From Candidatus Methanosuratincola thermotaenarum (GTDB taxonomy: Archaea > Thermoproteota > Methanomethylicia > Methanomethylicales > Methanomethylicaceae), in assembly GCA_038801655.1 (NCBI GenBank), contig JAULTB010000004.1, positions 1 to 37,063 of the forward strand: a stretch of 37,063 nucleotides of DNA, read 5' to 3'. The notes under the pieces are model-generated. The model did no database searches. It was not told where the DNA came from and was given only the letters and a program-made list of their open reading frames with translations. The translations under genes were made by a program, and so were the position numbers. Below, one piece after another: positions 6,559 to 33,556 of this stretch. Numbering within the stretch: position 1 is the first letter of the stretch; each line of letters begins with the position of its first letter.

Positions 6559-7935
6559 CTAGGCGATTTCGAGACCCAGGTCCGAGAGCTCTCTTGCCAC
6601 TTTGTCGTAAAGACCTTGCCATTCTGCCTTGGGTCTTGCGGACGCCATGTCATAGAGCTGTTGGAACGTCTTGCCCTTGGGCGCCTTGAAGATGTCAAGC
6701 CTCTCCTCGTACCTCGGGAGTATTTTGTTCAGGATCTCGTTCGCATCAGCCCTGCCCATGCCTGCCGCGGCAGCTGCAGCCTCCTTCAGCATCCTTGCCT
6801 CAAGCCCGGTGGAGTGGTCGACCAGCTTACCTCCGCATGATCCGCAGCCCATCACGTTCATGCCTGCTACCGATGCTGCGATCCCGCCCGCAGCCGCCTC
6901 CAAGAGGAGCATCTCCTCCCCAGGTCCGCTTGCGCAGTAGCAGTCATAGACGCTCATTATCTCAGAGTTCCTCGAGAGCGCCTGCCCGACCGTGCTAATT
7001 GCCCAAAGGCCCGGACGATCCGTGCCGTTCAGGTTCTTCACGTTGGTAAGGCTGCAGTAATGGTAGCTTGCGCTGTAGCAGACGGCTCCAGCGATATGCT
7101 CTGCCACATTCACTACCGCTGTCCCCTCGGGCCCGCCTGCGTAGCCTCCCAAGATTGGGGTCATCAGGTTGCCGATGTGGATCCCGTAGCTCTGGAGGTG
7201 CTCCACGAGCGAGAGGTGCTGGAGGCTGGTCTTGAGCTCAATCATCTGGGAGACTATCATTCCGTCGCTCGGCCTCAACCCGTATGCAGGGTCCAGTGCG
7301 CAAAGCTTTGCCTCGGGGCTTACGACTGCAACGTCGTTTATGTGCATCCCTGGCCTACCTGCTTGGCTTATCGCCTCCCTCGCCCACCTGGCCAGGAGCC
7401 GCGCCGCCCTGAACTCCTGCGGCGTCCCCTTCCTTATCTTGAAGCCGTCTATTGTGGCCAGCGTCCCTGCACCCAGGGAGTCTATTGCCCCCTCCTGCGC
7501 GAAGCTCCGCAATGTCTTAACGTAGATCTCACCCTCGGTGCAGAGCGTTCCCGTCGGGCCCGCGTGTATCACAGGAGGTCGAGGATCCTCGATCCGCCTC
7601 ATGTTCATCACGAACGCGTCCTTGCCCGAACCGAGCAGGATGCTTTCGGGGAGTGACTTCAGTACCATCTTTATCTCGCCCTCTTCGAACATGATTGATC
7701 GCTTCGTGGTCTGGCAGTAGAATCCCATCTCGAGCAGGAGCCTCATCGCCGCCTCGTACACATCGTCTGCCATAGAGTCATCGGTGCAGACCGGTCGCTC
7801 CGGGTCGTACCTTATGTCGTATTCCTTGACCAGCTCCCTCGTTCTCTTCATCAGCTTCATATCAAAGTCCTTCTCATCCATGAACGGGCCATCAAGCGCC
7901 CTCCTGGTCACTTCGTCAAGCCTGTAAGTCTTCAT
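6559..7935 (-). CDS. mtmB: Monomethylamine:corrinoid methyltransferase (MtmB) family protein, pyrrolysine-free
   Basis: 458 aa with AGPTG, AGRPGM, ELK, PILGGYAGG, TGLEARM and APKGKTFQQLYD, collinear with recalled Methanosarcina MtmB. No in-frame TAG. Confidence 0.88.
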   Translation of the reverse strand: MKTYRLDEVTRRALDGPFMDEKDFDMKLMKRTRELVKEYDIRYDPERPVCTDDSMADDVYEAAMRLLLEMGFYCQTTKRSIMFEEGEIKMVLKSLPESILLGSGKDAFVMNMRRIEDPRPPVIHAGPTGTLCTEGEIYVKTLRSFAQEGAIDSLGAGTLATIDGFKIRKGTPQEFRAARLLARWAREAISQAGRPGMHINDVAVVSPEAKLCALDPAYGLRPSDGMIVSQMIELKTSLQHLSLVEHLQSYGIHIGNLMTPILGGYAGGPEGTAVVNVAEHIAGAVCYSASYHYCSLTNVKNLNGTDRPGLWAISTVGQALSRNSEIMSVYDCYCASGPGEEMLLLEAAAGGIAASVAGMNVMGCGSCGGKLVDHSTGLEARMLKEAAAAAAGMGRADANEILNKILPRYEERLDIFKAPKGKTFQQLYDMASARPKAEWQGLYDKVARELSDLGLEIA

Positions 7936-7949
7936 TTCATATCACCTGT

Positions 7950-9317
7950 TCAGAACTCCAGCCCGGTCATTTCCGAGATCTCTTTTTTCATCTTCAGGTA
8001 AGTCGCATTCCACTCTGGCTTGGGGATCACCCTTCCCACGTCATAGAGCTCCGGGAATGGCTTGCCAATGTCAGGCTTTCCTTGCTTGTCTGCGTACCTC
8101 TTCACAAGCTCGACGACGATTGCATTGGCTGACTTGCGATTGAGTTTCGATCTCACCGTTGCATGCGCCACCTCTGCCATGAACCTGGTCTCGAGCCCAG
8201 TCGCATGCGGGTACTTCCCGTTGGTGGCCGAGACCCCTAGCGGGTGGCTCCCCGTAACTACATTCGTAATCGTGTTCGCTGCCGCCTCATAGAACACCAT
8301 CTCGCTCCCGGCGCCAGCCGAAGTCCAAACGTCCCCCATGATGATGAACGGGGCATTCCTTGCCATTGCCTGGCCGACGACGTTCAAGTTCCACATGCAC
8401 TCTGGTGCGCTCGTGCTCATATACCTGAAGTGTATTGGGTGGCAGACATGGAAGTCCGATCCGTACATGGCCCTGCCGAGAAGGAATGAAGCAACAAAGC
8501 AGACTGCCACCCCTTCCGGTCCGCCTGCATAGCCCCCTATGATCGGGTCGACCAATGTGACATTGTGCGCCCCATACTCGTAGAAGTTGACAACCTTGGA
8601 GATCCTGTCGAAGTCCGTCTTCAGCTCGTTCAGCAGCGCTACAAGGTGCGAGTCCGTCCTCCTCATGTACCTCTCGCTGGCTATCGCAAGGTCGCCCATT
8701 GCCGAGACGCTGCTCTCCGCGGCTATGAAGCTGATGCCAGGCCTCCCTGCGCGCCTAGCTGCCTCCCTGAGCATTGACAGCTCCCTCCTTGTGGCCTGGA
8801 TCTCGAGCGGCGTCTTTGTCCTGACCTTCCTCCCCTCGACCACCGCGAGCCCTCCGTTGTTGATCATGTCGACTAAGGGCTCCTTCATGTAAGATATCGC
8901 CATCGGGAGGTACCATTCCTCAGGTATGGCTGCCCCGGCCTGGCCTCCGCAGATTATAGGGGCGCGCTCGTCCTCGATCCCCCTGGCGTAGAGTATCCTG
9001 GAATCCTTGTTCTGCCCGATGATGAGCCTCCTTGGGGCCGAGATTATGCCCTCCTTCAGCTCGTACTCGTCAAACTTGACGACCCTCTTGGTGTCGATGC
9101 AGTATATTCCCGCCTCAAGCGCCAGCCTCAGCCCGGCCTCGAAGACGTCGTCCGCGAGCGAATCGTCCGAGGTGATTATCTGCTTCGGGTCGTACCTTAT
9201 GTCGTATTCCTTGACCAGCTCCCTGCACTTCTTGGCAACGATCTTTAGGTCGAACTCCGTCTCTTCCATGTAAGTTCCTGTTTCAGTCCTGTCGATTACT
9301 TCCCAGATCGAGGTCAT
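7950..9317 (-). CDS. mtmB: MtmB family protein paralogue, pyrrolysine-free
   Basis: 455 aa with GIYCIDTKRVVKF, AGRPG, DSHLVALLNELK, PIIGGYAGG and TGLETRFM. No in-frame TAG. Confidence 0.88.
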   Translation of the reverse strand: MTSIWEVIDRTETGTYMEETEFDLKIVAKKCRELVKEYDIRYDPKQIITSDDSLADDVFEAGLRLALEAGIYCIDTKRVVKFDEYELKEGIISAPRRLIIGQNKDSRILYARGIEDERAPIICGGQAGAAIPEEWYLPMAISYMKEPLVDMINNGGLAVVEGRKVRTKTPLEIQATRRELSMLREAARRAGRPGISFIAAESSVSAMGDLAIASERYMRRTDSHLVALLNELKTDFDRISKVVNFYEYGAHNVTLVDPIIGGYAGGPEGVAVCFVASFLLGRAMYGSDFHVCHPIHFRYMSTSAPECMWNLNVVGQAMARNAPFIIMGDVWTSAGAGSEMVFYEAAANTITNVVTGSHPLGVSATNGKYPHATGLETRFMAEVAHATVRSKLNRKSANAIVVELVKRYADKQGKPDIGKPFPELYDVGRVIPKPEWNATYLKMKKEISEMTGLEF

Positions 9318-9973
9318 GGGGCACCTCTCCTCTGGAGGAGCTCCTTTGCCACCTTGACAGCCTCGTCCCCGTCGTCACCGTACCCGTCGGCGCCGATCGA
9401 GGCTGCCCATTCGCGCGTGACTGGGCCTCCGCCGACCATCACTAGGTAATTCCCCCTTATTCCTCTCTCTTTCAGGAGCGAGATGAGGTCCTCCATGTAT
9501 GGCATCGATGTCGAGAGTAGCGTGGATGCACAGATGAAGTCAGCCTTGACCTCCTCTGCTTTCTTTATCAGCTCGTCTATCGGGACATCCCTGCCCAAGT
9601 CATAAACCTCAAAACCGTTGGCTCTCATCAGCATCGCGACGATGTTCTTGCCAATGTCATGGATGTCCCCTGTGATGGTGGCGATTACGACCTTGCTCTT
9701 GACAGTGGCTTTGCCCCGCTTTAGCGCCTCGGGCTCGAGCACTGCCAGGGCGGATTTCATCGCCTCTGCTGCAAGCATCACCTCAGGGAGGTATATCTTG
9801 AGCTGGCTGAAATCGTCTCCAACCCTGCTCATCCCCCTCATAAGCCCCTCGTTTATTGCCTTTAGGGGCTCGATCCCTGCTTCAAGGATCTTCTTAGATA
9901 GCTCTACTGCCTTGGCGTCATCTCCCGCGTAGACGGCGTTTGCCAATTCCTCGAATAACTGTGCTTCGCTCAT
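9314..9973 (-). CDS. Methyltransferase corrinoid (B12-binding) protein, MtmC/MtbC-like
   Basis: DIHDIGKNIV (DxHxxG), YLPEVM, DLGRDVP and VGGGPVT. ATG at 9973 follows a GTGAGG SD; overlaps the mtmB start. Confidence 0.92.
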   Translation of the reverse strand: MSEAQLFEELANAVYAGDDAKAVELSKKILEAGIEPLKAINEGLMRGMSRVGDDFSQLKIYLPEVMLAAEAMKSALAVLEPEALKRGKATVKSKVVIATITGDIHDIGKNIVAMLMRANGFEVYDLGRDVPIDELIKKAEEVKADFICASTLLSTSMPYMEDLISLLKERGIRGNYLVMVGGGPVTREWAASIGADGYGDDGDEAVKVAKELLQRRGAP

Positions 9974-10076
9974 CGGATAAAACCTCACTTGAAGTCGTCC
10001 TCGGCTGTTTTAATACTTTTTCGGTTTTCTTGCAAAATTCAGCTGTCTAGGGATAGCGCTGACATTAAAAATTGAT

Positions 10077-20629: not shown

Positions 20630-21862
20630 ATGCACAAAAAATCTATTTTCATGCCTCTTATGCTGATCTTTGCTTTGGCGCTGATCTCCTTTTCCCCTGT
20701 TCGCGCTGAAAATTTGACAGTGACCATAAATGCGTCTGGGATAGGCAGCGGCGCAATAGGAACAGTAATCAATTTTATGGGCACAAATGTCGCTGCTTCG
20801 CAACTGCCGAAGCAGTTCAGCGTGGCAAACGGCACGAATGCAACTTATGCATGGCAACAATACGTTACGGTCAACTCGACTTACAGGTTTGCATTTGTCA
20901 ATGCCTCAAAAACAACAATGATTGTCAGTTGCCTGCCAGGGATACCGCCGATTTGCCTATACCTGCCGTTCACAACAAACATGACTCAGAATGGTACCGT
21001 ACTCATCACAACCAATACCTCTATGAAGGCTTACTATTCCCCTGAGGTCTACTTGCAGTACGCCGCACCCGCCGGAGGTTCAGCGAACATCACCTCAGGA
21101 TGGCACTCGCCTGGCACAGCTCTTGTGATCTCAGCCACACCCAACTCAGGGTACAACTTTGATGGATGGACCACGACTGGATCGCTCTCAGTCCAAAACT
21201 CAAGCGCATCTGTGACAACGCTTACGATCAACGGACCTGGCACCGTCACAGCAAAGTTCGTAGTCGCCCCTCCCCCGCCATCCGGGTTCCCCATGGAGTA
21301 CGTAATCTTGATTGTTGCGGTCGTTGCTGTTCTCGGGATAGCGGGCGCATTCCTGATGAGAAGGAAGCCAAAGCCGCCGCCTGCCCCTAGACCAGTAGCG
21401 CTGAGGATAATCCCTGAAAAGAAGGAGATATTTGCAGACGGGCGTTCCTCGACAGACGTCGTTGTCGAGCTGGTGGATTCAGAGGGTAAGCCTATCAACT
21501 CTGATGTCGTGAGGGAAGTTCACCTGTCCGCCTCAGACGGTACAATTCCGCAATCTGTAACCATTCCAAAAGGCGCATCATCAGCAAGGGTCCAGCTGTC
21601 ATCTTCAATTCGCGTGGGTCAGGTGAATTTGACTGCATCGTCAAAGGAACTTCAATCCGCCCAAGCGGCAGTTGCCTTCGTTGAAAAGAAGCGGTACTGC
21701 ATGGTCTGCGGACAGAGGATGCCTATCGATGCTAGGGTCTGCCCGAGCTGCGGAAGCGCTCCGCCCTCAGGCGCAGATACAAAAGTATGCCCGAACTGTG
21801 GGGCCGTCATACCTATCGTGGCAAAATTCTGCAGGGAGTGCGGAGCAAGCCAGCCTGCATGA
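20630..21862 (+). CDS. Bitopic membrane protein: signal peptide, extracellular beta domains (InlB B-repeat-like), TM, Ig-like domain, double zinc ribbon
   Basis: Signal peptide (VRA-E), many NxS/T sites, ATPNSGYNFDGW repeat motif, TM followed by RRKPK, ADGRSSTDVVVEL (invasin/Big-like), four CxxC at the C-terminus. Confidence 0.75.
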   Translation: MHKKSIFMPLMLIFALALISFSPVRAENLTVTINASGIGSGAIGTVINFMGTNVAASQLPKQFSVANGTNATYAWQQYVTVNSTYRFAFVNASKTTMIVSCLPGIPPICLYLPFTTNMTQNGTVLITTNTSMKAYYSPEVYLQYAAPAGGSANITSGWHSPGTALVISATPNSGYNFDGWTTTGSLSVQNSSASVTTLTINGPGTVTAKFVVAPPPPSGFPMEYVILIVAVVAVLGIAGAFLMRRKPKPPPAPRPVALRIIPEKKEIFADGRSSTDVVVELVDSEGKPINSDVVREVHLSASDGTIPQSVTIPKGASSARVQLSSSIRVGQVNLTASSKELQSAQAAVAFVEKKRYCMVCGQRMPIDARVCPSCGSAPPSGADTKVCPNCGAVIPIVAKFCRECGASQPA

Positions 21863-21910
21863 CCAATTCTTATATCCTTCTTTTTTTATGATATGGTATA
21901 GGGGAGTCTT

Positions 21911-22306
21911 TTGGGTTCCATTGCCGCAAAATTAGGCGATTTTGTAAATGCGACTGACGTCCACATGGTCATGATGCCTTCTCCCGGAGGCCCTGTTCCT
22001 GTTTTTGTGAGCCTACCTTTCCTTGGTCCTATTGCAGAACAGGTCAGCAAGGATGTTTTCATTGGGGGTTTGCCTGCAGCGACTGTGGGCAGTGTTGCTA
22101 TCAATACGTCGCCCCACATAGCCCCGCCTCCAGGAACCTTTGCGAAGCCTCCTTCGAACAAGGCCCAGATCGTCGATGGAAGCAAGAGCGTATTCATAAA
22201 CGGCAAACCGGCAGCCCGGGCGGGCGATCCCGCATTGACTTGCAACGATCCTGTTGATATGCCGGTCGGAACTGTTGTGGCAACGGGGAATGTATTCATA
22301 GGCTGA
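21911..22306 (+). CDS. PAAR spike-tip protein
   Basis: VFIGGLPAATVG and VFINGKPAARAGD repeats; His/His/Cys candidate Zn ligands; ends VFIG. Confidence 0.92.
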   Translation: MGSIAAKLGDFVNATDVHMVMMPSPGGPVPVFVSLPFLGPIAEQVSKDVFIGGLPAATVGSVAINTSPHIAPPPGTFAKPPSNKAQIVDGSKSVFINGKPAARAGDPALTCNDPVDMPVGTVVATGNVFIG

Positions 22307-22372
22307 CGGTTTGATTTTAAGGGCGGGCACCATCGACTAAAAAGGGGATTGGTTGAGACATATTAAAAAAGT

Positions 22373-23065
22373 TCAACCAACCTTCCCCTTGCCAATCTCT
22401 ATCCTCTCTATCACGCCAACCTCAAACTCCACTGAAATCTCCTTCTCCGCGATGCAGACGATCCTCAACCCGTCCTCCAGCCGTATCCCTTTCAACGGTC
22501 TGATTCCGATGCCTCGCCTTTCAAAGGCATCCGATTCGGCGAGCAGGACCTTGACAACTTCCTCGGCGAGGGAATCCGTCTTCTGGCTATCGCCCCCCCT
22601 GATGTCGATGAAGTACTTGGAGATGAGCTTGAGCGCCCTCCTCAGCACATCTGCCCTTGTTCTGTAAGAGATCATGGCTTTCCATACTGGCTGCCTGAAT
22701 TCGATTATCCCTGCCTTGTAGTCGACTGTATACCCTTCACCCTCTGCTATTTTTGTCCAGCCCTCCTTTCCCGCCTCCTGTTCTTTACGCTCGAGTATTT
22801 GGACCTCTAGGCTGCCCCCCTCTGGTTTGTTCTTGAGCCTCTTCCTTGCTTCGTCTCTTTTCAGTTCGAGGACTTCGCTGATCTCTACCGTCTTGGAACC
22901 CTCGCTGTCGACTGCCTGCTGAGCCCCGAACTTGAAGCCCCCGCAGGCAACCCCCACTGAGGGCGTGCCCTTGAGGCGGCCCCCTGCTCCAACCTGATCC
23001 CCCGAAACCCCTTTGAGGTTTTTGCGGAGAGTCTCAATAAGAATGCCTTCGATCTCTTGCAGCAT
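22373..23065 (-). CDS. Hypothetical CIS protein, candidate tail terminator/cap (Pvc16/DUF4255-like)
   Basis: Last gene of the operon. N-terminal helix MLQEIEGILIETLRKNL resembles terminator N-termini; internal YTVDYKAGIIEF beta insert. Confidence 0.4.
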   Translation of the reverse strand: MLQEIEGILIETLRKNLKGVSGDQVGAGGRLKGTPSVGVACGGFKFGAQQAVDSEGSKTVEISEVLELKRDEARKRLKNKPEGGSLEVQILERKEQEAGKEGWTKIAEGEGYTVDYKAGIIEFRQPVWKAMISYRTRADVLRRALKLISKYFIDIRGGDSQKTDSLAEEVVKVLLAESDAFERRGIGIRPLKGIRLEDGLRIVCIAEKEISVEFEVGVIERIEIGKGKVG

Positions 23066-23071
23066 TTCATG

Positions 23072-23758
23072 TCACTCTTGCAGAATGGCCCCGGATCGGA
23101 TCCTTGATGAATAGTGTATGACATTGCCAATCCTGGGAGCGCACTCAGGGTTAGTATTCCTGAACGTGACTGTGAGCACTTCTTTCTCAGGGGAGGGGTT
23201 CTTAGCCCTGTAACGGTACCACACATTCTCGTTTGGGGAGAGCAGATATTCGATGTAAGGGTTATCGGTCCCCTTCGGCCTTAGCTTGGACCTCTCGTGC
23301 ACGTAAAGGCCATTGACCACCGCGCTCGTGCCGTCGATGTACTCAAATGTTATCTCGAGCGTCTTCCTGTCCCCGTTCTCTGACCCTGACCAGTAGTCCA
23401 TTGACTCGAACTTTGCGGCGACTCCGAACCTGCAAATTACCCCTTCGGATCCCCTTTGAGCAACCCATTGCCTCGTGATCAGCCCGACCACTGGAGAGTC
23501 GTATGAGGTCTTCTCCCCTGGCACAACCTCGTTCAGTGCGTAGGAGGTCCCGACAGGGCTGACCATGTTGAGAAGGGTCTCTGTCTGCTCCATGCTGTCG
23601 ATGTAGTCCCTCAGCTTCTGGAGTTTTGCCTCGAGCTCTTGTATGTCCCCAAGGATCTCCTCCTGCATCCTGTTCCAGTCCTCAGACCTTATCACTTCAC
23701 CAGGCTTTCTCAGAATTGGCTTGAATTTGCCCACAAACTCACACTCCTTTTTGATCAT
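23072..23758 (-). CDS. Hypothetical CIS protein, candidate short fibre/receptor-binding protein
   Basis: Follows the wedge genes. PGEVIRSEDWN motif, then a coiled coil, then a beta-rich domain. Confidence 0.4.
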   Translation of the reverse strand: MIKKECEFVGKFKPILRKPGEVIRSEDWNRMQEEILGDIQELEAKLQKLRDYIDSMEQTETLLNMVSPVGTSYALNEVVPGEKTSYDSPVVGLITRQWVAQRGSEGVICRFGVAAKFESMDYWSGSENGDRKTLEITFEYIDGTSAVVNGLYVHERSKLRPKGTDNPYIEYLLSPNENVWYRYRAKNPSPEKEVLTVTFRNTNPECAPRIGNVIHYSSRIRSGAILQE

Positions 23759-23768
23759 TGCCCATTGG

Positions 23769-24686
23769 TTAAATCACCCTGACTCTTGATGACACACCAG
23801 CGGCCCTCATCCTCGAGACGAATCTCTCTACTTCCCCGACCCCTAGGCCGCTCCTCTCAAGTGCCCCCGATTTGATCCTCACCTCGAAGGAGGCTGGGGC
23901 ATGGCCTTCCCATTCAAACCTGATCTTCAGATACGGAATCCCCTTGGTGAACGTGTGCTCGTCGAACTTTGCAGAATCGAAAACACCAAGCAGCCCGCTC
24001 AGGGACTCGCTGTACTTCCAAACGGATCCCTCCCTGAGGAGCTTGGGGAACCCCTTGACCTCGACCCTGTCCGCCACATCCTCCCCGTTGAGCTCCGCTA
24101 TTCCCTTGGAAAGAATTAATTCCTGACCGCCAACCAGCGTTCCTTTGTAGGTTACAGTGTCGCCTGTCTTCAGGTTTGTCAGCGTCGGGTCCTTGACCTC
24201 CCCGCCCTCCTCCACCGAAACCCTTATCCTCGGATCTACATCCTCCACAGTCCTGCTGCTGATTGTCCAGGTCTCGCCTGCCATGACTTTCACCTCTTCT
24301 GAGAGTGAAAGGAGTGGGTTTTCGACGATCTCGATGTCTCCTTCCGACGAAGTTCCTATCAGGCCCATGACCGATTCGAGTATGGCCCTGACCGTGCCTC
24401 CCCCTCGGTAGTCGCTCACTGCCCTGCGGATCCTCGACCTATACTTCTCGTCGTCCTCCCCTCGCATTCTCTTTGAAACAACGGCTGCACCCAGGCGGTC
24501 CAGGTCTGGGCCTCTGGCGGAATCTACCCAGTGCGCCCTCATTATCTCAGCTACCTGGTCATCGGCGTCGTCGAGCTGGGATGCGAAGGAAGACATGAAA
24601 GCGTAGAGAAGCGATCCCTTGTCCCATCCCTTGTAGAACTTGGGGAGCCTATCGCACATCTTTTCTGCTCTACTCATACTTCTCAC
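23769..24686 (-). CDS. Baseplate wedge protein (P2 gpI / T4 gp7-like) with inserted beta domain
   Basis: RLP..Y, VDSARGPDLDRLG, GEDDEKYRSRI, GGGTVRAI and terminal RAAGV. Confidence 0.7.
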   Translation of the reverse strand: MRSMSRAEKMCDRLPKFYKGWDKGSLLYAFMSSFASQLDDADDQVAEIMRAHWVDSARGPDLDRLGAAVVSKRMRGEDDEKYRSRIRRAVSDYRGGGTVRAILESVMGLIGTSSEGDIEIVENPLLSLSEEVKVMAGETWTISSRTVEDVDPRIRVSVEEGGEVKDPTLTNLKTGDTVTYKGTLVGGQELILSKGIAELNGEDVADRVEVKGFPKLLREGSVWKYSESLSGLLGVFDSAKFDEHTFTKGIPYLKIRFEWEGHAPASFEVRIKSGALERSGLGVGEVERFVSRMRAAGVSSRVRVI

Positions 24687-26247
24687 GCACCCCGAATGTG
24701 ACGCTCACATTCCTCGGGATTGCCCTCTCGTCCGTTTCGATCCTGATGTTCTCGCCCCGACTGAGCAGGGGCTCCCCGGTCCTATAGGCTGCAAGCTTAA
24801 GGTCCCTCACGTCCCAGACCCCGTCCACCGCCAGGCACGAGGCTATTATTTTTGAATACAGGACGTCCTCGGCGATCTTCAGCGATGCTATGTAGCCCCT
24901 GACCGATGCCTCCACATCCCTTAGGATCCTTCCTGGATCCGATGGCGCCTCAATGATGACTGTCATCGATACATCGATATGCACTACCTTGGGCCTCAAG
25001 AATTCCACCTTGATGCCTGCTGCCCTGGTCTCGTCTATGACCCTCCTTATCTCTGCCTCGTCACCACCATCCACGACGACCCTGACTATGCCTGGGACCC
25101 CTCCTGGCATCTCGTCGATGAGTATGGAATTAACGCCCTTGATCGACTTCAGGGCGGAATCGAGTGATGAAGGCGTAGCCTTGGCTGCGAACTCCAGCGC
25201 ATGCCTTGCCCTCTCCCTGAGCTCTTCGTCTGTCTCTGCTTCAGATCCGTTTGAGATGTCCCCCTTGTTTATCACATATTCGACCCCGATAACCGGCTGC
25301 GGCATTATTGTTATTGCACCTGCGGGGACATTGCCCTTCTTTCCAGGCACTGTGCAGACGACCGACACGTCACACTCCCATCTCCCCCCTTCGGCAGGGT
25401 GCAATACCCCATCTTCTGTTGTCAGGAACACCTTTGCATCTTCAGGGGTCGTAGAGAATGTGGAAACCTTTGTGTTCTTTGGGACCTTTATCTGCTGGAA
25501 TGCCGTATAATCGATCTTGAAGACTGTGCGGGGGTCTGGCTTTCTGCCTCCTGGGCGCCATGCCAAACTCCTTCCGGACAAGCCGTAGTCAGATGTCGTG
25601 AAGACCGTGGCCTGCCCGCCAGAGATGCCTTCGACTTTGGTTATCTCCTTGACCAGCGCGTTCTTCAATTCGTAGCTCTCGGAGCCGTCGTAAAGATGGA
25701 CCTCTCCAGCCACCTCGATCTTCTCTGGCTCGCTTGTCCTCCCGAATGTTACCCTTCCTGAAGAAGGTCTCGGCAGCCTCCTTGTAATCCCTAGGAGCGA
25801 GACGGTCATCTCCAGCGCCTCGCCGGTTGCAGTGTCGAGGAAACCCGCCCGGTATGCGGCATCGAGCTGTTCGTAAAGGAACTCGATCTCCCTGCTTATG
25901 CCCTCGACGAGCGTCCTGAGCACGCTCCCGGTGCTGGTGTCCGTAAGCCCGCCGGGTCTGGCATACCTGTATGTCACTGCGAATGTGGTTCCTTCATCCG
26001 GTCTTGCCCCGCCTGCGATCCACTCGACTGTGTTGCCTGAGAGCCTGTAGTCCTTCGCACTGGAGAACTCTGTCTCCTTCCTCATGTATATGCCAGAGAT
26101 CTTGATGATTTTGGTGACAGGGGCATTTGCAAGACGGTAAGTCGCCCTGCTCCCTTCGTACTTGAAAGCCTCTGACGCCTCTACGCCCGTTATGCGTCCC
26201 AGGACATCTTCTGTTATCTGATCGTAGCCCTTAACCTTGAATGGCAT
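24670..26247 (-). CDS. Baseplate J / gp6-like wedge protein
   Basis: GSVLRTLVE, FLDTATGEALE, GITR, GKKGNVPAGAIT, GSEAETDEELRER and AAGI. Confidence 0.9.
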   Translation of the reverse strand: MPFKVKGYDQITEDVLGRITGVEASEAFKYEGSRATYRLANAPVTKIIKISGIYMRKETEFSSAKDYRLSGNTVEWIAGGARPDEGTTFAVTYRYARPGGLTDTSTGSVLRTLVEGISREIEFLYEQLDAAYRAGFLDTATGEALEMTVSLLGITRRLPRPSSGRVTFGRTSEPEKIEVAGEVHLYDGSESYELKNALVKEITKVEGISGGQATVFTTSDYGLSGRSLAWRPGGRKPDPRTVFKIDYTAFQQIKVPKNTKVSTFSTTPEDAKVFLTTEDGVLHPAEGGRWECDVSVVCTVPGKKGNVPAGAITIMPQPVIGVEYVINKGDISNGSEAETDEELRERARHALEFAAKATPSSLDSALKSIKGVNSILIDEMPGGVPGIVRVVVDGGDEAEIRRVIDETRAAGIKVEFLRPKVVHIDVSMTVIIEAPSDPGRILRDVEASVRGYIASLKIAEDVLYSKIIASCLAVDGVWDVRDLKLAAYRTGEPLLSRGENIRIETDERAIPRNVSVTFGVREKYE

Positions 26248-26248
26248 G

Positions 26249-26683
26249 CTATGCCACCTCCAAGTGGAACGGATACCTTATGCTCAAGATCCCCCCTCCT
26301 GATGCTGGTATGATCGTGATTTCTATCGTGACCAGCCCCGGGTCGTCCCTGTCTGGGATTGCTGTGACCGAGACCAGCTCCCGGATCCTCCTCTCCCCGG
26401 CAAGGCTCGACTCCACCGCCCTGTGGATGAGGCTCATTGACCTCTCAGTCCTGGGCTGCCCCAAGACCTCGCTTAGCCTCGAGCCATAGCCGCTGTGCCC
26501 CAGCTCCTCCATCTCCCCAACTGCTGTCGAGAGCCTGCAGATTATCGCCTGAGCCAAGTTGTCGATCCCCTCGATTGTTGCCAGGTCGCCAGACTTATCC
26601 ACTGCCAAGTCTGCACCGGTGCCGTCTATCCTTAACCTAAGATCCCTGCCCAATTTCTCATCGCTCAAAGCATCCCCTCCCAA
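26249..26683 (-). CDS. gp25/GPW-like sheath-initiator wedge protein
   Basis: GDLATIEGIDNLAQAI..RLST..GE...H..YGSRL and ERRI. Start may be TTG 26668. Confidence 0.85.
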   Translation of the reverse strand: MGGDALSDEKLGRDLRLRIDGTGADLAVDKSGDLATIEGIDNLAQAIICRLSTAVGEMEELGHSGYGSRLSEVLGQPRTERSMSLIHRAVESSLAGERRIRELVSVTAIPDRDDPGLVTIEITIIPASGGGILSIRYPFHLEVA

Positions 26684-27451
26684 TCAGTTTATGTTGACTA
26701 TGCCGCCCTTGATCTTGACCGTGGCCGTCCCCTCAACACTGGCCTGCACTCCAGCACTTAGCTCTGCGTTGTTCGAGGCAGTGTTTTTCAGGTTGTTTCC
26801 GGCTGTGACATTGACATCTTTCCCGCCGTCCACATTGACGTTATTGCCTGATGATATGCTTAGATCTTCCTCGGTGGTTATCTTAAGGTTTGACGCGGAG
26901 ATTGAAATGTCCCCCTCGGCCTCGATTGCCGTGTCGCCCTTGGACTTGACCTTGACGTCACCGTTCGCCTCAATTGTGACATCCCCGCCCCTCTGGATCG
27001 TGACCCTCGTCGCCCCCGCGGTTACCGTCACCTCCGCGTCCTTGAGGCATACTTTCATGCCTCCTGGGAGCTGGATGTAGACTCTTCTCAACTCCTTGTC
27101 TTCCTCATAGGGCACAGAATAAACCAGCTCCCCGGTCTTGCTGACGGGCGGGCGGTCTTTTTCGTTGTAAATGCGCCCTATCACTATCGGGAAGTTCAGG
27201 TCCCCCCCAACAAAGTCTATTAGCACAAGATCTCCGACGGAGGGTGGCACGACCAGCCCGTATGCAGCGGTTGCGATCTGGACCCCCCTGAGCTCCAGCT
27301 CGCTGTTCTTGAGCCTGACGTTGCACTCGTAATTATCCTTGTCCCCCTCACTTGAATGAGGGAATACGGATGTGACTATCCCCAGCTCAGGCGTCCTGAG
27401 CTTGCTTATCTCCTTCCTTGCCACGTCTTTCATAGCCTTGACTATGCTCAT
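26684..27451 (-). CDS. Baseplate spike (P2 gpV / gp5-like OB fold plus beta-helix)
   Basis: LGIVTSV, PPSVGDLVLIDFVGGD..PIVIGRIYN, then ~8-residue beta repeats ending KIKGGIVNIN. Confidence 0.9.
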   Translation of the reverse strand: MSIVKAMKDVARKEISKLRTPELGIVTSVFPHSSEGDKDNYECNVRLKNSELELRGVQIATAAYGLVVPPSVGDLVLIDFVGGDLNFPIVIGRIYNEKDRPPVSKTGELVYSVPYEEDKELRRVYIQLPGGMKVCLKDAEVTVTAGATRVTIQRGGDVTIEANGDVKVKSKGDTAIEAEGDISISASNLKITTEEDLSISSGNNVNVDGGKDVNVTAGNNLKNTASNNAELSAGVQASVEGTATVKIKGGIVNIN

Positions 27452-28413
27452 TCCAACTTCCTCCTGCAGGTAAAAGTGCTGGTGAAGCCCATTGAGGCGC
27501 TGAATCTGTGCTCAACCCTGGTGACCTCATGCGAACCCTCAATCTCACGGTCGTCAAAGCCCTCGAGTGTAATGGTGTCCCCAACCCTTATGCCCGGCTT
27601 CCCCTCTGACTTCACGTTAAGCATCACCGTGTATTTCGATGCCTCGAGCAGCGCTTCGCCTGCCTTTTCCGCACTCTCGCTGCTCTTGAGAGATGCCTCT
27701 GCTATAGCCAGCGACCTCTCCCCGCCCTTTGTGAACTTGAGCTCCTCTTTTGCAGCCCAGTGGTAGGTCTCTGCCCCCTTGGAGCTGACCGGGCTCTCCC
27801 CGAAGACCGCGACCCCATCGTATGGAGGCCCCTTCCTGATTGCCCAGACCTCCAGGAGATCCTTCCCGTAGGAGAACCTGTGCTCCTTGCCCCCTCCAGG
27901 TCTCCTGAATATGAGCTTCCCGTCCTTGTCAAAAAAGGCGTCCGCGCCGCAAAGCTGGCCAAGCCTGACAATGTGCTCGAGCAGGTTCGAGCGATCATCG
28001 ATGGCGTAGTACGGGTAATTGATCCCATTCTCGAATTCCTTCACGTCAACGCCCGCCTCTTGCGCGAGCGTAACCACGATCTCTCCTGAGGTGCGGCTCA
28101 GGAAAACCATGTTTGACCTCTTCCTGAGCAGCTTCGAACCGATCCCGTCGATCGAAATCAACACCGAATTGAGCCTCACCTCTGCCCTTGCAACATTCCC
28201 GACCATAATCTTCTCCAACGACCCGTCATAACCGAGCTTGAGCTCCGCCTCTTCCAGGGGCTTGAATCTGTACGATGATTCCTTGCTTATGACCGCAGTT
28301 ATCCCGTCCACGGGGAGCCCCATTCCGCAGCTCGACATGATGAAGCTTATGCCGTCACCTGTGCTGAACACCTTATCCCCTATCCTCAACTCGAATTCAG
28401 GGTGCTTCATCAA
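27448..28413 (-). CDS. Baseplate hub (gp27 / Mu gp44 / P2 gpD-like)
   Basis: LGYDG, TSGEIV..LA, FFDKDGKLIF, GKPGIRVGDTI and VTRVEHRFS..GFTS; lies upstream of the spike gene. Confidence 0.82.
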   Translation of the reverse strand: MMKHPEFELRIGDKVFSTGDGISFIMSSCGMGLPVDGITAVISKESSYRFKPLEEAELKLGYDGSLEKIMVGNVARAEVRLNSVLISIDGIGSKLLRKRSNMVFLSRTSGEIVVTLAQEAGVDVKEFENGINYPYYAIDDRSNLLEHIVRLGQLCGADAFFDKDGKLIFRRPGGGKEHRFSYGKDLLEVWAIRKGPPYDGVAVFGESPVSSKGAETYHWAAKEELKFTKGGERSLAIAEASLKSSESAEKAGEALLEASKYTVMLNVKSEGKPGIRVGDTITLEGFDDREIEGSHEVTRVEHRFSASMGFTSTFTCRRKLE

Positions 28414-28449
28414 ACTCCCGCCATATTTTGATTATCCTATTTGCCCTTT

Positions 28450-29436
28450 TCAGAGGCTTTTTTTCGGTCCATCTTTTGGGGCGTCCTGGGAAACTGGGTC
28501 GAAGAGCCCGCCCTTGATCCCGCCATCCTCGCCAGCTGCGGCATCTCCTTCCTTGTCCTCAGCGTACTTCTCTTCACTCTTCGCTGGTCTGGACTTCTCT
28601 GCTCCTTTTTCCTCCTCCAGCCCCCTTCCCTCCGAGGCGCCCCCCTCATCCTTGAGCTCGCCCGATTCCTTTTCCTTTCCCTGTCCCTTCTCCTCCTCTT
28701 TCTCTCCAGGCCCTTTGCCTTCCTCCTCTTTGATTGCTCCTTCTTTTTCCTGATCCGCCTTCCCGCCGCCCTCTTTCTCGCTCTTTATTCCTGCTTCCCC
28801 TTCGCCTTTTGGCGTCCCTTCGGCAGCCCCCTTCTCCAGCTCTCCTTTCCCTTCCGGGGCCCCTTCCTTTTCCTTGGGCTTCTCCTCTCCTTTGCCCCCT
28901 TCCTTTCCTCCTTCGTCCTCCTTGCCGCCCTCCTTCTCCTTCTCTTTCGTGATCTCCTTCGTCTTCTCCTCGACTTCCTTATCCGCTTCCCCCTTCTGGC
29001 TTGGTGCACCCTTTTCTCCTGCGCCTTCCTCTGGGGGCGGCTTCGCCTCCCTGAGAAGCATTGTATAGCTGATCTCCAAGGGTATCCCTTCGTGGACCCT
29101 CGCCGAGAACCCCTCGAAGATGATCGTTGTTATGTCTTCGATTGCCCAGATGTCAGACGAGAACGGGATGAGCTCGCCTGAGTTGAACTTGGTTCTGATT
29201 GCCTTCATCGTATCCGAGGCTCCCTTGCCAATCAGCCTCCCCTCTAGCCTCACACACCGGGGATCCCTCCCCATGTCTTGGAAGATGTTCGATTGCGATC
29301 CAGGCACTGGGAGCTCGACCACCTTCCTCCTCGCCGAGACATGGACCTCGTGGACGCTCCTTATCTCGATGGTGGCGCCCTCCTCGTCAACGCGCTTTAT
29401 CAGGTCAATGTCGTCAAGCTTGATATACACGCTCAT
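28450..29436 (-). CDS. Tube-initiator-like protein (gpU / DNA-circularisation N-terminal type) with ~200 aa Glu/Lys/Gly-rich tail
   Basis: VELPVPG...QDMGRDPRCVRLEG N-terminal domain ending YTMLLRE, followed by a low-complexity charged region. Confidence 0.65.
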   Translation of the reverse strand: MSVYIKLDDIDLIKRVDEEGATIEIRSVHEVHVSARRKVVELPVPGSQSNIFQDMGRDPRCVRLEGRLIGKGASDTMKAIRTKFNSGELIPFSSDIWAIEDITTIIFEGFSARVHEGIPLEISYTMLLREAKPPPEEGAGEKGAPSQKGEADKEVEEKTKEITKEKEKEGGKEDEGGKEGGKGEEKPKEKEGAPEGKGELEKGAAEGTPKGEGEAGIKSEKEGGGKADQEKEGAIKEEEGKGPGEKEEEKGQGKEKESGELKDEGGASEGRGLEEEKGAEKSRPAKSEEKYAEDKEGDAAAGEDGGIKGGLFDPVSQDAPKDGPKKSL

Positions 29437-31166
29437 CCCTCACCGTAGTGCCTCCGCATCTCATCCTCGATTATCCTTGAGATCTTCCTCTGCAGCTCCA
29501 AGAGATCCCCATCGCCATCGACTGTGACGTTGACCCTCAATTCCCTTTGCATCGGGTATACTTGGGACTCCTCGAGCTCCGCCGGAACCGGGAGCCTCTC
29601 CGCCGCTGCCTCGCGCCCCCCATCAATGCCCGTTCTCGCCTCTTCAACATGGGGGAGAGCCAACTGCGGAGCGATTATGCTGGACCTGACCTCCTCAGCC
29701 ATGGCAGCAAGGTTGAGCGCTGCAAGAGGCACCCCTTTCCAGGGGGCTGGCAACCCGCTCCCCAGCAAGGGGCTAACGGAAGGCACTCCCGCGGTCGCAA
29801 CCTGTCCGTCAGCGACCTGCCTGTTGGGAACCGCTTGGGCTGCAGGGGGCAGTATTCTTTTCCGGCCGGGCAGCCCGAGTGCTATTGTTGGTACAGAAAG
29901 CGCAAATAGCGCTGGGGAAACTGCTTCGAATATGGGCTTCCAGATGCCTGCCGCCTTGCGTAACTCCGTCCTCTCAATCGCGGCAGCGAGAGGCAAAAAT
30001 GCCGCCCCTCCTGAACCGGTCCCATGCTGGAACTTGAACCCTTCCAATCCGTGCCCTATTGGTACGCCTTCCACCTCTTGGGCCCTTGCTAGTGCCATCC
30101 CGCCTGCTTCAGGCGGCACCATTCCTTTACCACCGATCTCTGTGCCTCCAGTCAGTGTCGAGGCTCGCGGAAGCTGCTTCCTGGTCGCCTCAGCCACTGC
30201 CGGCATCCTGATGCCCGTTCCCGTGGCCGCTGCCCCTTCCGCAATGCCTGCCACGCCGCCCCTTCCTTCGCGCATCGGCTGGGACCCCGGGAGCTCGATT
30301 CCGGGAGGTGATTGGATGCCTGCTGGCGGGGAGGGTGCTTCTGTCGGCTCCGAAGTGCCTGCTGGTGCGGTGCCAGCTGCCTTCCATTCGAGAGGCAGGG
30401 CCCGTGGTGCCCATCCGCGGACCGCGCTCCCTGCGGCGCCTGATAGAGCAACTGTTGACTTTGCGCCTAGCACCGCCGCAGTTGCCAGGAAACTGGATGT
30501 AAGGGCCAAACCGCTGGGACCTGGGATCTGGTGGATCTTCCTCCCAACTCCCTTTCCGTTTTCCTTTTCGGGCATGGTTATGCCTGCGGCTCGAGCAGGC
30601 TCTTCCCCTATCGCTGTCCCTGATGACGGGGCTGGCATGTAAGCGCCCCAGCTTTCCTCCCCCCCGGGCTCCGGTCCCTCCCCCTCAACTGATGTGGGAA
30701 TGACGGATGTTTCACCCTGGTGTGGCGCAAAAGCAGAGGGCATATGCTTGGAGATCGCGCTGGAGTACGCACCAGCGGCCTTTGCGACGCTCCCTGCGGC
30801 TGAGAGGCTCAGGATCACTGTGAGCGGCGCTGTTCCCCGCCTTGGGGATGATAATCTCCCCTTTCTTGGTGCTATTGCACCAGATCCTGCTGTGGACCTG
30901 CCCTTTTGAGGAGACCAAAGCAAACCGCCGGAATAGGGCGCAGAAACCCTCGCAATCGTCGCCACTCCAGTGGCTGCCGCCCTGACCGCCTCCTGGACCT
31001 TGTAGAACAACCAAAGTAGCGACCTGAGGCTCCTGATCACGGCCCTCAGCGCCCTGGAGGATGCCCATGCTCCAGTCACCATGAGGTGCGCACTGAGCGC
31101 GCCACCTCCTGTGCCTGCGTACCCCTGCTTGAGCCTCCTGCTCAAAAGATCCCAGATTGTACTCAT
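29433..31166 (-). CDS. Tape-measure-position protein (Ala/Gly/Pro-rich, 577 aa)
   Basis: Lies between the chaperones and the tube initiator. C-terminal LRVNVTVDG..LQRKISRIIEDEMRR resembles tape-measure C-termini; ATGA-coupled to the next gene. Confidence 0.55.
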   Translation of the reverse strand: MSTIWDLLSRRLKQGYAGTGGGALSAHLMVTGAWASSRALRAVIRSLRSLLWLFYKVQEAVRAAATGVATIARVSAPYSGGLLWSPQKGRSTAGSGAIAPRKGRLSSPRRGTAPLTVILSLSAAGSVAKAAGAYSSAISKHMPSAFAPHQGETSVIPTSVEGEGPEPGGEESWGAYMPAPSSGTAIGEEPARAAGITMPEKENGKGVGRKIHQIPGPSGLALTSSFLATAAVLGAKSTVALSGAAGSAVRGWAPRALPLEWKAAGTAPAGTSEPTEAPSPPAGIQSPPGIELPGSQPMREGRGGVAGIAEGAAATGTGIRMPAVAEATRKQLPRASTLTGGTEIGGKGMVPPEAGGMALARAQEVEGVPIGHGLEGFKFQHGTGSGGAAFLPLAAAIERTELRKAAGIWKPIFEAVSPALFALSVPTIALGLPGRKRILPPAAQAVPNRQVADGQVATAGVPSVSPLLGSGLPAPWKGVPLAALNLAAMAEEVRSSIIAPQLALPHVEEARTGIDGGREAAAERLPVPAELEESQVYPMQRELRVNVTVDGDGDLLELQRKISRIIEDEMRRHYGEG

Positions 31167-31198
31167 GATCTCCGGTCCAGTCTTTTTTATGGGGCCTC

Positions 31199-31408
31199 CT
31201 AGTCCTCTACCACTTCGATCCGGGTTATCCCCTCTGCGGCCAGCCTCGCAGCCTCTGCAACCCTCTGCCTGTGCGCCATCGCAGCCGTCAGGAAGAGTAT
31301 CTGGTCCCTGGTCAGGTCGCCAGGCCTGTCCGCAAACTTGTACCCGCAGTCTAGGCAGAGGGCCGCGAGCTCAAGCCCTTCCGGGCTCCTAACGAACTCG
31401 TCGATCAT
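31199..31408 (-). CDS. Tail assembly chaperone extension (gpT-like)
   Basis: Overlaps the end of the upstream chaperone right after an A9 run; DLTRDQILFL motif; no SD visible. Confidence 0.6.
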   Translation of the reverse strand: MIDEFVRSPEGLELAALCLDCGYKFADRPGDLTRDQILFLTAAMAHRQRVAEAARLAAEGITRIEVVED

Positions 31409-31772
31409 CTTTTTTTTTAGGGGCTTCCACGCCTGCCACGCCGCTCATCTCGAGGATCTTCATGCCAATGTACTCCGGAACCCCGAATTTCATCGATGCG
31501 ACCTCTTCGACCGTCAGCTTGGGTTCGACCATCCCCATGGACACCACCAGCCTGAGCGCCTCGAAGTTCTTGGAGAGATCCACCTTTGAGAAGTCGGGAG
31601 CCCCGTCCTCCTTGAGGCTCACCGCGCCCACCGTGGCAAAGACCTTGGTCAATTCGCCGTCGGTCAGGGGGCGGATCACTACGTCAGCTCCGTACTCCTC
31701 GACATGGACCGTAGCCCTGGCATTAGCTCCCTCGAGTATGGCCTGTTTAGTCAGGCGTGGGCTCTCAGCCAC
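31389..31772 (-). CDS. Tail assembly chaperone (gpG-like)
   Basis: Lies right after the tube gene. VVIRPLT, GMVEPKLT and ILEMSG are typical; ends in a KKK slippery run. Confidence 0.7.
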   Translation of the reverse strand: MAESPRLTKQAILEGANARATVHVEEYGADVVIRPLTDGELTKVFATVGAVSLKEDGAPDFSKVDLSKNFEALRLVVSMGMVEPKLTVEEVASMKFGVPEYIGMKILEMSGVAGVEAPKKKDDRRVR

Positions 31773-31775
31773 CTA

Positions 31776-32174
31776 TCACTCCTCCCTGAGCCTGGTCGCC
31801 GTCCAAGTGTAGTCAGTCACTCCTACACCGTTTGCGTCCATCGCGAAGCTCTTGCCCTCAAGGTAGCAATCGTCGAAGATCAGCTTCTTCACAGTGCTGC
31901 CCCACTTCTTCAGCTCAACAACTAGCTGGAACGAGTTCTTCTCAGTCACGCTGCTGAGCAGCTTCTTGTCAAACGGAGGGTATGTGGACCTGACCCGCAT
32001 CGACCCCGAGATGAACATTGGGCCATAGTCGACGCCAATCCTCTCGTCGACTCCGATGTGATGTATGTTCTGGCGGTTCCTGACTATCTTGTACTCTATC
32101 GACATAAGCCCGGGTATCGTCTTCCCGTCGACCGTGATGCTGCTCACATTCGCGGATATTATTGACTCTGACAC
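31776..32174 (-). CDS. Tail tube protein
   Basis: 132 aa beta-rich protein immediately downstream of the sheath; GTG start after a GGGGGTGA SD. Confidence 0.75.
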   Translation of the reverse strand: MSESIISANVSSITVDGKTIPGLMSIEYKIVRNRQNIHHIGVDERIGVDYGPMFISGSMRVRSTYPPFDKKLLSSVTEKNSFQLVVELKKWGSTVKKLIFDDCYLEGKSFAMDANGVGVTDYTWTATRLREE

Positions 32175-32188
32175 TGCGCTTCACCCCC

Positions 32189-33556
32189 TCACGCCTGGAC
32201 CGTTATGGTTGCGTAGATGTAATCCATCGCCCTCACAGGCCTCACCGCTATGTCAACGCGGACGACCCCCTGCGCAAAGTCCATCTGCGAGGAGTAGACG
32301 TCCACCAGGAATGCCGGCTCCTTGCCGTCTGTGCTCGGGACTATGGCATTCTCGCGCTCCATCTGGATCATGAACTCCGTGATCTTTTCTTTCAAAGCTC
32401 CCCGACCCTGGGCTGTGTTGAGGGTCCCTATGAAGTTCTCCGAGATGTTCTTGGTCCCTCTCACAGCATGGTCGGCTATCCTTATTACGCTGATCTGCTC
32501 CTTGCTTGTGGTGATCGCTTTCTCCACGATTAGCCCCCTGCCGCGCCGAGCCTCGATCGCGAGAACTCCTGCCTTGAGAAGCTCCATCAACTCAGATGGG
32601 GTGTACCTCCTTTCAAGCTCTGCGATCCCTGTCAGCGCCTTGAATGTCGGAGATTCGTAGTAGTTCAGCCTGCTTATCAATCCGGCAACCGCACCGGCGA
32701 CGCCATAAGGGGCGACAAGCACGAACCTGTCGCTGGCTAGAGCGCTGGTCCTCTTAACGATCTCCTGGACGCTCTCGCCTGGCCCGACCGTGCCGATCCC
32801 AATGCGGTTCTTGGCGTCCTTGCTCATGTTCATGCAGTGCGCGTCGACCATGGCGTGGACCTTCGGATCCCAGCAGTCCGCTACCAGCACTACGTCAACA
32901 TCCTCCTCCATCTCAAGCATCTCGAGTGCCTTCTCGTAGGATGAAGGATCTGGCTTCGAAGTGACGCCGCCCTCGAACTGCCCTTCGCCGACCATGAGCG
33001 CCTTTGATGCAGCTTTGCCCCTCTTCCCGAGGTCCTTAGCGGTCGCAAGCTTAGAGCCCCTGTTTATCACATCGACCGCGTAGAGCTCGCTCGACCTGTC
33101 CATTGTTATATTGTCGAATGCCTCGAACCTCGTACCGTCGGTAATCTGGAGCGAGAAAGAGCCCTCTATCGCGCCGGCTGAGACTGAGTATCTCAGCTTA
33201 TTTCCGGATTCCCCCACGTACCTTGCTTCAAGCCTCAGCGCCTCCTCCCCCTCCGCGTCCTTCAACACTGCGGATGCATTCGCTGTCCCAGCGGCCTCTA
33301 TGCGGGTCGCAAAGACCTCGAATACACCATTCATGAAGCAAATCCTGGCCTCCTTAGTCAGGCTGAAGGAGAGATCAGAACCGAACTTCTCCTGGTACTC
33401 CCTGTAGCTAGTGACTGGGACTGGCGTCAGGATCGGTCCCTTCTCGGCGGTCCCAATGATCCCGACGACTCCGGACGGGTGGAGCTGCTGGGGCACTATC
33501 TCCTTGACTACCTGAACCTCTACACCTGGAAGAATTCGTACCAAATTAGACCCCAT
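32189..33556 (-). CDS. Contractile tail sheath protein
   Basis: LPGVEVQ, GIIGTAEKGP..PV.VTS..EY..FG, F.NG, RIAD, FIG..N...R and C-terminal VRPVRAMDYIY. Confidence 0.93.
   Translation of the reverse strand: MGSNLVRILPGVEVQVVKEIVPQQLHPSGVVGIIGTAEKGPILTPVPVTSYREYQEKFGSDLSFSLTKEARICFMNGVFEVFATRIEAAGTANASAVLKDAEGEEALRLEARYVGESGNKLRYSVSAGAIEGSFSLQITDGTRFEAFDNITMDRSSELYAVDVINRGSKLATAKDLGKRGKAASKALMVGEGQFEGGVTSKPDPSSYEKALEMLEMEEDVDVVLVADCWDPKVHAMVDAHCMNMSKDAKNRIGIGTVGPGESVQEIVKRTSALASDRFVLVAPYGVAGAVAGLISRLNYYESPTFKALTGIAELERRYTPSELMELLKAGVLAIEARRGRGLIVEKAITTSKEQISVIRIADHAVRGTKNISENFIGTLNTAQGRGALKEKITEFMIQMERENAIVPSTDGKEPAFLVDVYSSQMDFAQGVVRVDIAVRPVRAMDYIYATITVQA

Follow-up and report, generated by a model that had tools for sequence, protein, structure and literature searches.

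The locus described here raises the question of how two overlapping reading frames in a phage-tail-like gene cluster of Candidatus Methanosuratincola thermotaenarum are expressed, and whether the run of nine A's at their junction is the place where a second, longer product arises. The window, by which we mean the whole 37,063-nt stretch of DNA that was analyzed, comes from an assembly of 1.09 Mb that is about 80% complete. On its minus strand we observe a G-like tail assembly chaperone ORF (31389-31772, 127 aa, GTG start), which would give the zero-frame product, followed by a T-like ORF (31199-31408, 69 aa) that lies in the +1/-2 frame relative to G and begins with ATG ATC GAC at 31408. Across the junction the minus strand reads GCC CCT AAA AAA AAA GAT GAT CGA CGA GTT CGT TAG, and the A9 run at 31410-31418 (T9 on the plus strand), the candidate recoding site, is read in frame 0 as AAA AAA AAA, encoding K119-K121 of G. 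The T frame is open starting 26 nt 5' of the run, and the -1 frame reads AGA TGA, closing two codons past the run (TGA at 31405-31407, minus strand). An SD-like GGGAGGAG lies 6 nt 5' of G's GTG start and the tape-measure gene has GGAG 4 nt 5' of its ATG, whereas in the window sequence nothing but GCCCCT and the A run stands before the ATG at 31408, with no SD (nothing like GGAGG). These elements had been pointed out in the original prediction, which was made from the letters alone and named the A9 within CCT AAA AAA AAA GAT GAT CGA, the downstream ORF at +1/-2, the -1 frame running into TGA at once and the missing SD; each is confirmed in the sequence. A GT fusion spanning 31199-31772 (minus strand) is predicted to carry the junction ...EAPKKK(K)MIDEFVRSPEG; its length would be 190 aa after the loss of one A or a ribosomal +1 shift (P0121, read with AAAG as K) and 191 aa if the message is A11 or the shift is -2. 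Judged from the reading frames, an A10 message would yield a G shorter by 5 residues.

The G/T pair is set in an 11.7-kb minus-strand module of tail genes (21886-33556, from Pfam and PHROG matches), in which sheath, tube, G, T and a 577-aa gene in the tape-measure position follow one another; we take the gene order of the module to be that of Mu and PBSX. The first gene of the module encodes the tail sheath (32189-33556, minus strand, 455 aa; PF04984, E 3.4e-19; phrog_279, E 2.4e-57). The tube protein gene directly 5' of G (31776-32174, minus strand, 132 aa), whose product is conserved across 45 loci, and the Ala/Gly/Pro-rich gene directly 3' of T (29433-31166, minus strand) have no Pfam or PHROG match and are assigned by position, the former by its place between sheath and G. 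The remaining part (21886-29436, minus strand) comprises a DNA_circ_N/DUF6046-like gene, a gpD-like hub, a spike (PF04717), a gp25-like sheath initiator, a baseplate J gene, a gpI-like gene and three further ORFs. In the gene that follows the tape measure (28450-29436, minus strand), the DNA_circ_N/DUF6046-like part is the N-terminal third, and the protein ends in a Glu/Lys/Gly-rich low-complexity tail of about 200 residues. Both flanks of the module are cellular, with ilvBNC-type genes (acetolactate synthase, ketol-acid reductoisomerase), a YhfC protease and others, and no head, portal, terminase or integrase gene is present within the 37-kb window; a rearranged relative (L038) is also tail-only. 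As known from the genes within these 37 kb, the module has a full set of tail and baseplate genes and is a headless phage-tail-like cluster that would make a tailocin or contractile injection system in the wide sense, and the "domesticated" label that the machine had been given on first reading fits, given the cellular flanks and the absent head genes. The published description of the genus (PMC12244365) does not mention the words tail, contractile, phage, virus, sheath or transcript.

Other genes in and around these modules deserve a brief mention. A surface-type protein with Ig-like (Big_1/Invasin_D3) domains and C-terminal double zinc ribbons adjoins the tail module (20630-21862, plus strand), and a double-zinc-ribbon protein is found inside the rearranged tail module of L038 (6388-6990, minus strand). 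Farther away, two tandem MtmB-family methyltransferase genes of 458 and 455 aa (6559-9988, minus strand) align with the Pfam model from one end to the other, contain no in-frame stop and are followed by a corrinoid-binding protein gene; going by sequence, they would be MtmB homologues read without pyrrolysine.

With respect to the identity of the two products, the window's G has a weak match to phrog_344, a tail assembly chaperone family (E 1.4e-3), and the same family is matched by 16 of 22 G family members (best E 1.9e-6). An AlphaFold model of G from a 22-sequence alignment (pLDDT 76) has as its top PDB match the HK97 tail assembly chaperone (2ob9; E 8.3e-3, TM 0.50), with Bacillus subtilis YqbN (3klu) ranking fourth, and the top matches of the model in BFVD include annotated tail assembly chaperones from both bacterial and archaeal viruses (E from 1.6e-5). 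A PDB profile search with the G alignment returned a chance-level match only (E 0.43), and neither G nor T matched a Pfam family. T is conserved over 45 diverse loci with a mean column identity of 65% and is modeled as three helices (pLDDT 94); none of the 45 members matched PHROGs, and the fold search of the T model in BFVD gave no match (best E 1.1). By its conservation and its model, T is a real, conserved small domain, mostly without a start codon of its own. We observe several features of a G/GT pair at this locus, namely a position between tube and tape measure, an overlapping and start-poor second ORF, a conserved slippery sequence, and the family and fold of G. Position, the phrog_344 family, the HK97-like fold and the conserved T domain thus support the assignment of G and T as a tail assembly chaperone pair, and with it the G/GT recoding reading first proposed for the site. 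Six recorded proteins (P0122-P0127) are natural single-ORF G-T forms, five of them with 190-201 aa and a KKK junction (P0122-P0126) and one with 151 aa and a KK junction (P0127), indicating that a fused G-T is viable as a protein.

The reading of the junction depends on the length of the run, and the original prediction carried the caveat that it might in truth be A8 or A10. DNA contigs from run X1, which may be the source sample, and from run X3, another sample of the same study, span the run with 0 gaps and have A9, as do all five congeneric genome assemblies, which answers the caveat. Within the 1,085,827-base assembly there are just 7 A/T runs of at least nine, and the one at the G/T junction is the sole one deep inside long open frames; the other six (contigs C6, C9, C58, C73, C74 and C75) apparently lie between genes or at gene ends. 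Lysine codons in the window's tail module are AAG in 189 cases versus AAA in 56. The rarity of such runs in the assembly, the minority status of AAA and the retention of the run in 97 of 99 related loci indicate that the A9 run is more than a product of chance.

For the comparison across homologous loci we gathered 128 loci, 7 of them from relatives' genomes (the gene was found in 7 of the 41 searched), 27 from the genome collection, 14 from IMG/VR and 80 from metagenomes (the best 80 of 217). Exact duplicates (18), distant viral loci (10) and a locus with an N gap (1) were left out, and the 99 distinct loci that remained carry labels that include Methanomethylicia, Bathyarchaeia, Nitrososphaeria, Thermococci and Methanomicrobiaceae MAGs. 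A run of at least nine A's stands at the same spot in 97 of these 99 loci, which share ancestry and are thus not phylogenetically independent, and whose metagenome part comes from the best 80 of 217. The lengths are A9 in 84 loci, A10 in 11, A11 in 2, A8 in 1 and A7 in 1, with exactly A9 in 28 of the 28 distinct genome-collection loci. The run starts at codon positions 1, 2 and 3 among the 99 loci, and where it stands in phase 1 or 2 the encoded residues are different (QKK, RKK and KKN tails). In no locus is it interrupted by a G, and lysine in the G genes of all loci is encoded by AAA 407 times versus AAG 535 times. The other residues in phases 1 and 2, together with AAA being the minority lysine codon, indicate that the run is kept as nucleotides rather than as lysines. 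Phase variety and codon bias also rule out a conserved lysine patch. Two further roles for the run were considered and rejected: archaeal terminators are T runs on the sense strand, which here carries A's, and a TATA-like internal promoter for T does not agree with T's conserved sequence starting at the run and most T ORFs being start-less.

The comparison of frames in orthologues, proposed as a check when the site was first described, places T at -1 in 73 of the 99 distinct loci, at +1 in 23 and in frame in 1, with 2 loci unassigned on truncated contigs. In the region from the upstream stop to 30 nt past the run, no ATG, GTG or TTG is available in 64 of 96 T ORFs, and no ATG in 82 of 96. On a tree of 95 G+T rows from which the junction codons were excluded, the T frame changes at least 8 times, with at least 5 of the changes forced by well-supported branches, and none of 500 shuffles gave a count as low as that observed. 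The run is retained through all of these switches, and the alignment indicates that the frame switches by indels of 1 to 4 bases right beside an unchanged run, either 3' or 5' of it. A conserved RNA structure around the run was not found among 39 sequences (consensus -1.38 kcal/mol, compensatory change in 1 of 11 pairs).

Several individual loci depart from the general pattern. One lineage recovered from three metagenomes (L053:1781-1947, identical to L054 and L055) combines a T at -1 with an A7 run in the classical A_AAA_AAA phase, and L036 has an A8 run. L056 has an A10 run with G and T in frame, on a metagenome contig with a coverage of about 2.3. The archaeal module also occurs in two loci labeled as bacterial MAGs (L026 and L030; Patescibacteria, Krumholzibacteriaceae), of which L030 and the Bathyarchaeota loci L029, L031 and L032 form a group with very short branches; the bacterial labels of both are probably a binning error. 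Distant G relatives with 27-36% identity from IMG/VR (L043, L045, L047, L041, L039 and L040; L043:10340-10650) are without the A run and have a T-like ORF in the +1 frame with the motif F-A-R-S-x-E-G-Q. In L043, L045 and L047 this ORF overlaps G at AGC TTT TTT CGC, a possible +1 site with a T6 run. The presence of a head protease, a capsid-type protein and a tape-measure gene indicates that L043 is a real virus.

Contigs assembled from RNA libraries show a different run length than the genomes, at the level of contigs and for a sister strain of the window's organism. In metatranscriptome X15 the single contig across the run carries three extra T's (A12; depth 70.8), and in X20 the single contig carries two (A11; depth 74.3); such contigs retain one path per run rather than read proportions, and A9 messages may be common. 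The contigs are about 8% different from the window (about 92% nucleotide identity) and agree at 40 of 40 listed differences with L008, the complete genome of a sister strain. In total, the RNA contig has 272 other letters and 4 gaps relative to the window, and L008 has 273 substitutions and one 1-nt deletion. L008 has A9 in its DNA, as do L002, L049 and L050, and the A9 of the sister strain's DNA is based on the genome record and two metagenome contigs. Other homopolymers of 5-7 bases in the same 4.1-kb stretch have indels in 0 of 14 cases. With A11, the sister-strain sequence reads CCT AAA AAA AAA AAG ATG ATG GAC..., which places G and T in one frame, and the A12 contig stays in frame 0 and is itself not a GT message. 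Stutter of the reverse transcriptase or of PCR may be the origin of the longer runs, but in our judgment +2 and +3 as assembled paths in two libraries are unlike usual stutter. The check for indels in RNA that had been suggested with the original prediction thus found A11 and A12 at the level of contigs, in the sister strain.

Taking these observations together, we consider it likely that G and GT are made by programmed transcriptional slippage on the A9 run. Standard reading of an A9 message would give G alone. The archaeal RNA polymerase would slip on the nine-base rA:dT hybrid and produce messages with extra A's, among which A11 messages (and also A8 and A14) would have G and T in one frame and would give, by ordinary translation, a GT of about 190 aa; an A10 message would give the slightly shortened G and an A12 message G plus one lysine. 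In most related lineages, in which T is at -1, one added A (A10) would be enough for GT. The G:GT ratio may thus be determined by which frame T occupies, given that one added A suffices for a T at -1 and A11 is needed here. By analogy with lambda (as described in the available text of PMC5009743), the tape-measure protein would carry a coat of G, and the tube protein would be brought in by the T portion of GT. We infer the polymerase as the cause, the making of the GT protein and the binding partners of G and T from these patterns. The features expected of a slippage site are observed here, namely a coding-strand run of about nine A's that is conserved whatever its codon phase or target frame, and slippage leads among the readings because of the run length of at least nine, the indifference to phase and frame, the lack of a downstream stimulator and the lengthened RNA contigs. 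The A7 lineage (L053-L055) and the A8 locus (L036) count against it, since polymerase slippage should be weak there.

In the original prediction the emphasis was the reverse, with ribosomal shifting by -2 or +1 in the lead and transcriptional slippage as an aside; comparative and RNA-contig evidence has since moved the aside to the front. Frameshifting by the ribosome on an unedited A9 message would have tRNA-Lys slip by -2 (or +1), and by -1 in most relatives, which is the foremost competing reading but which we regard as unlikely as the explanation of the site; ribosomal slippage may act alongside that of the polymerase. Precedent exists, as ribosomal shifting is the known route for tailed-phage G/GT pairs and Mu uses -2 (PMC3458567), and predictions for haloarchaeal viruses are of -1, with +1 in HSTV-2 (PMC5009743, PMC8211752), in the text available from these sources. 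In each of the observed phases, an all-A run lets pairing be restored perfectly after a shift of -1 or -2, and the A7 lineage (L053-L055) has the textbook A_AAA_AAA heptamer with T at -1. In the parts of the literature available, the length of poly-A was correlated with frameshift efficiency for Mg-chelatase reporters, some of them archaeal, in Escherichia coli (PMC3711429), and ribosomes, too, lose their frame on long runs of A, both -1 and +1/-2 products having been obtained in vitro from A8C (PMC3458567). However, a heptamer is enough for -1 and an octamer for -2, yet at least nine A's are kept in 97 of the 99 loci; a conserved downstream stimulator was not seen, and the extra A's are already present in the RNA-library contigs. 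A classical -1 cassette is not found in the window, where the -1 frame of the heptamer leads to AGA TGA and is closed at once and where no conserved stimulatory structure was seen downstream, although the -1 frame does lead into T in the 73 relatives with T at that frame.

Two other readings do without recoding of the message in either form. Variation of the DNA itself, by replication slippage or phase variation, or an assembly error, would leave some cells with a fused gene, and the A10 and A11 variants among metagenome contigs, the in-frame G and T of L056 and the fused proteins P0122-P0126 on record are in line with this. We nevertheless consider it highly improbable, as contigs of two DNA runs show only A9, exactly A9 is found in 28 of 28 genome-collection loci and in 84 of the 99 distinct loci overall, and the lengths found in the two RNA libraries differ from each other and from the A9 of the matching genome. 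That T initiates alone at the ATG at 31408, with the run being merely the lysine-rich tail of G, we regard as scarcely credible. In the window and its four congeners an ATG does open T two bases after the run, but it lacks an SD-like sequence, whereas G and the tape-measure gene have one; a start codon is missing from 64 of 96 related T ORFs, whose conserved sequence begins right at the run, natural fused proteins with the same junction are on record, and the run is conserved in phases that do not encode KKK. Programmed transcriptional slippage thus remains our best reading of the site.

This reading can be placed beside several known systems. The gpG/gpGT pair of lambda and the conserved frameshift in tailed-phage chaperone genes were described by Xu, Hendrix and Duda (2004; cited in the available text of PMC5009743 and PMC3711429). 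The archaeal pair resembles that of lambda in having two overlapping ORFs between tail tube and tape measure, with a start-less second ORF joined near the end of the first, and the window's G has the chaperone fold and family. Unlike in lambda, a nine-A run takes the place of a phase-locked heptamer, T is at +1/-2 and flips between +1 and -1 within the family, the change is apparently made in the message, as the RNA contigs suggest, and the host is an archaeon with no head genes in the cluster. Phage Mu, as far as described in the text available of PMC3458567, has the same frame relation (-2 equals +1) at the same gene position in a Mu/PBSX-like contractile tail module, but its slip sequence is GG GGG CGA and involves tRNA re-pairing, in contrast to nine A's and lengthened RNA contigs here. 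Among archaeal hosts, the tailed viruses of haloarchaea have the same gene pair, with predicted -1 shifts in HVTV-1 and HCTV-1/2/5 and a +1 relation, as here, in the myovirus HSTV-2 (PMC5009743, PMC8211752). These, however, are complete viruses whose shifts are read as ribosomal, and the available text mentions no poly-A run or RNA evidence for them.

Parallels to the run itself come from bacterial transcription. An A9 run in dnaX of Thermus thermophilus gives rise to mRNAs with 8, 10, 11, 13 and other numbers of A's (Larsen et al. 2000, as reported in the accessible text of PMC1088944 and PMC5009743), and the same sources report that selection against A/T runs appears at a length of nine in many genomes. 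In line with the Thermus case (tau/gamma), as far as it is described in those sources, we observe a sense-strand A9 in a coding region and nearby stops in the other frames; messages with extra A's, as the sister strain's RNA contigs suggest, and two products per gene would be further points in common. The slipped messages give the shorter product in Thermus and would give the longer fusion here, and the Thermus case involves a bacterial polymerase and another gene family, unlike the archaeal one here. In the Shigella type III secretion genes spa13 and mxiE and in IS transposases, slippage on A9/T9 fuses frames in part of the messages (PMC5009743, PMC1088944, available text), and spa13 is likewise a gene of a length-controlled injection machine; those cases are, however, bacterial and concern unrelated proteins.

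For archaea, experimentally documented recoding amounts to little beyond a -1 shift in a Sulfolobus fucosidase and stop-codon redefinition, according to the text available of PMC8211752, and a suspected poly-A recoding site is reported in Mg-chelatase genes, some of them archaeal (PMC3711429, likewise in part). The text available of PMC5009743 and PMC1088944 knows programmed transcriptional slippage from bacteria, viruses and eukaryotes only, and a search of the openly accessible literature found no description of it in an archaeon or for a tail chaperone. If our reading is true, no earlier case of programmed transcriptional slippage would be on record for Archaea, nor for any tail assembly chaperone. 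The finding is relevant to researchers of both recoding and archaeal transcription. Being natural and strongly conserved, the site is well suited to testing whether a Pol II-like polymerase slips, with about a hundred sequence variants for comparison (including A7, A8, A10 and A11 runs and both target frames) and with cultured relatives that allow the measurement of RNA and protein. There is also a consequence for annotation: gene calls overlook T or list it as an orphan ORF, and assemblies from long reads or at low coverage may "correct" the run. For the headless contractile-tail clusters of Methanomethylicia, Bathyarchaeia, Nitrososphaeria and some Methanobacteriota, we lean toward the view that slippage of the archaeal polymerase on a fixed nine-A run is the selected route to GT, with lineages tuning G:GT through the frame of T. 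A headless tail machine that is widespread in uncultured archaea would then keep the device by which its viral ancestors set chaperone stoichiometry, implemented in a different way.
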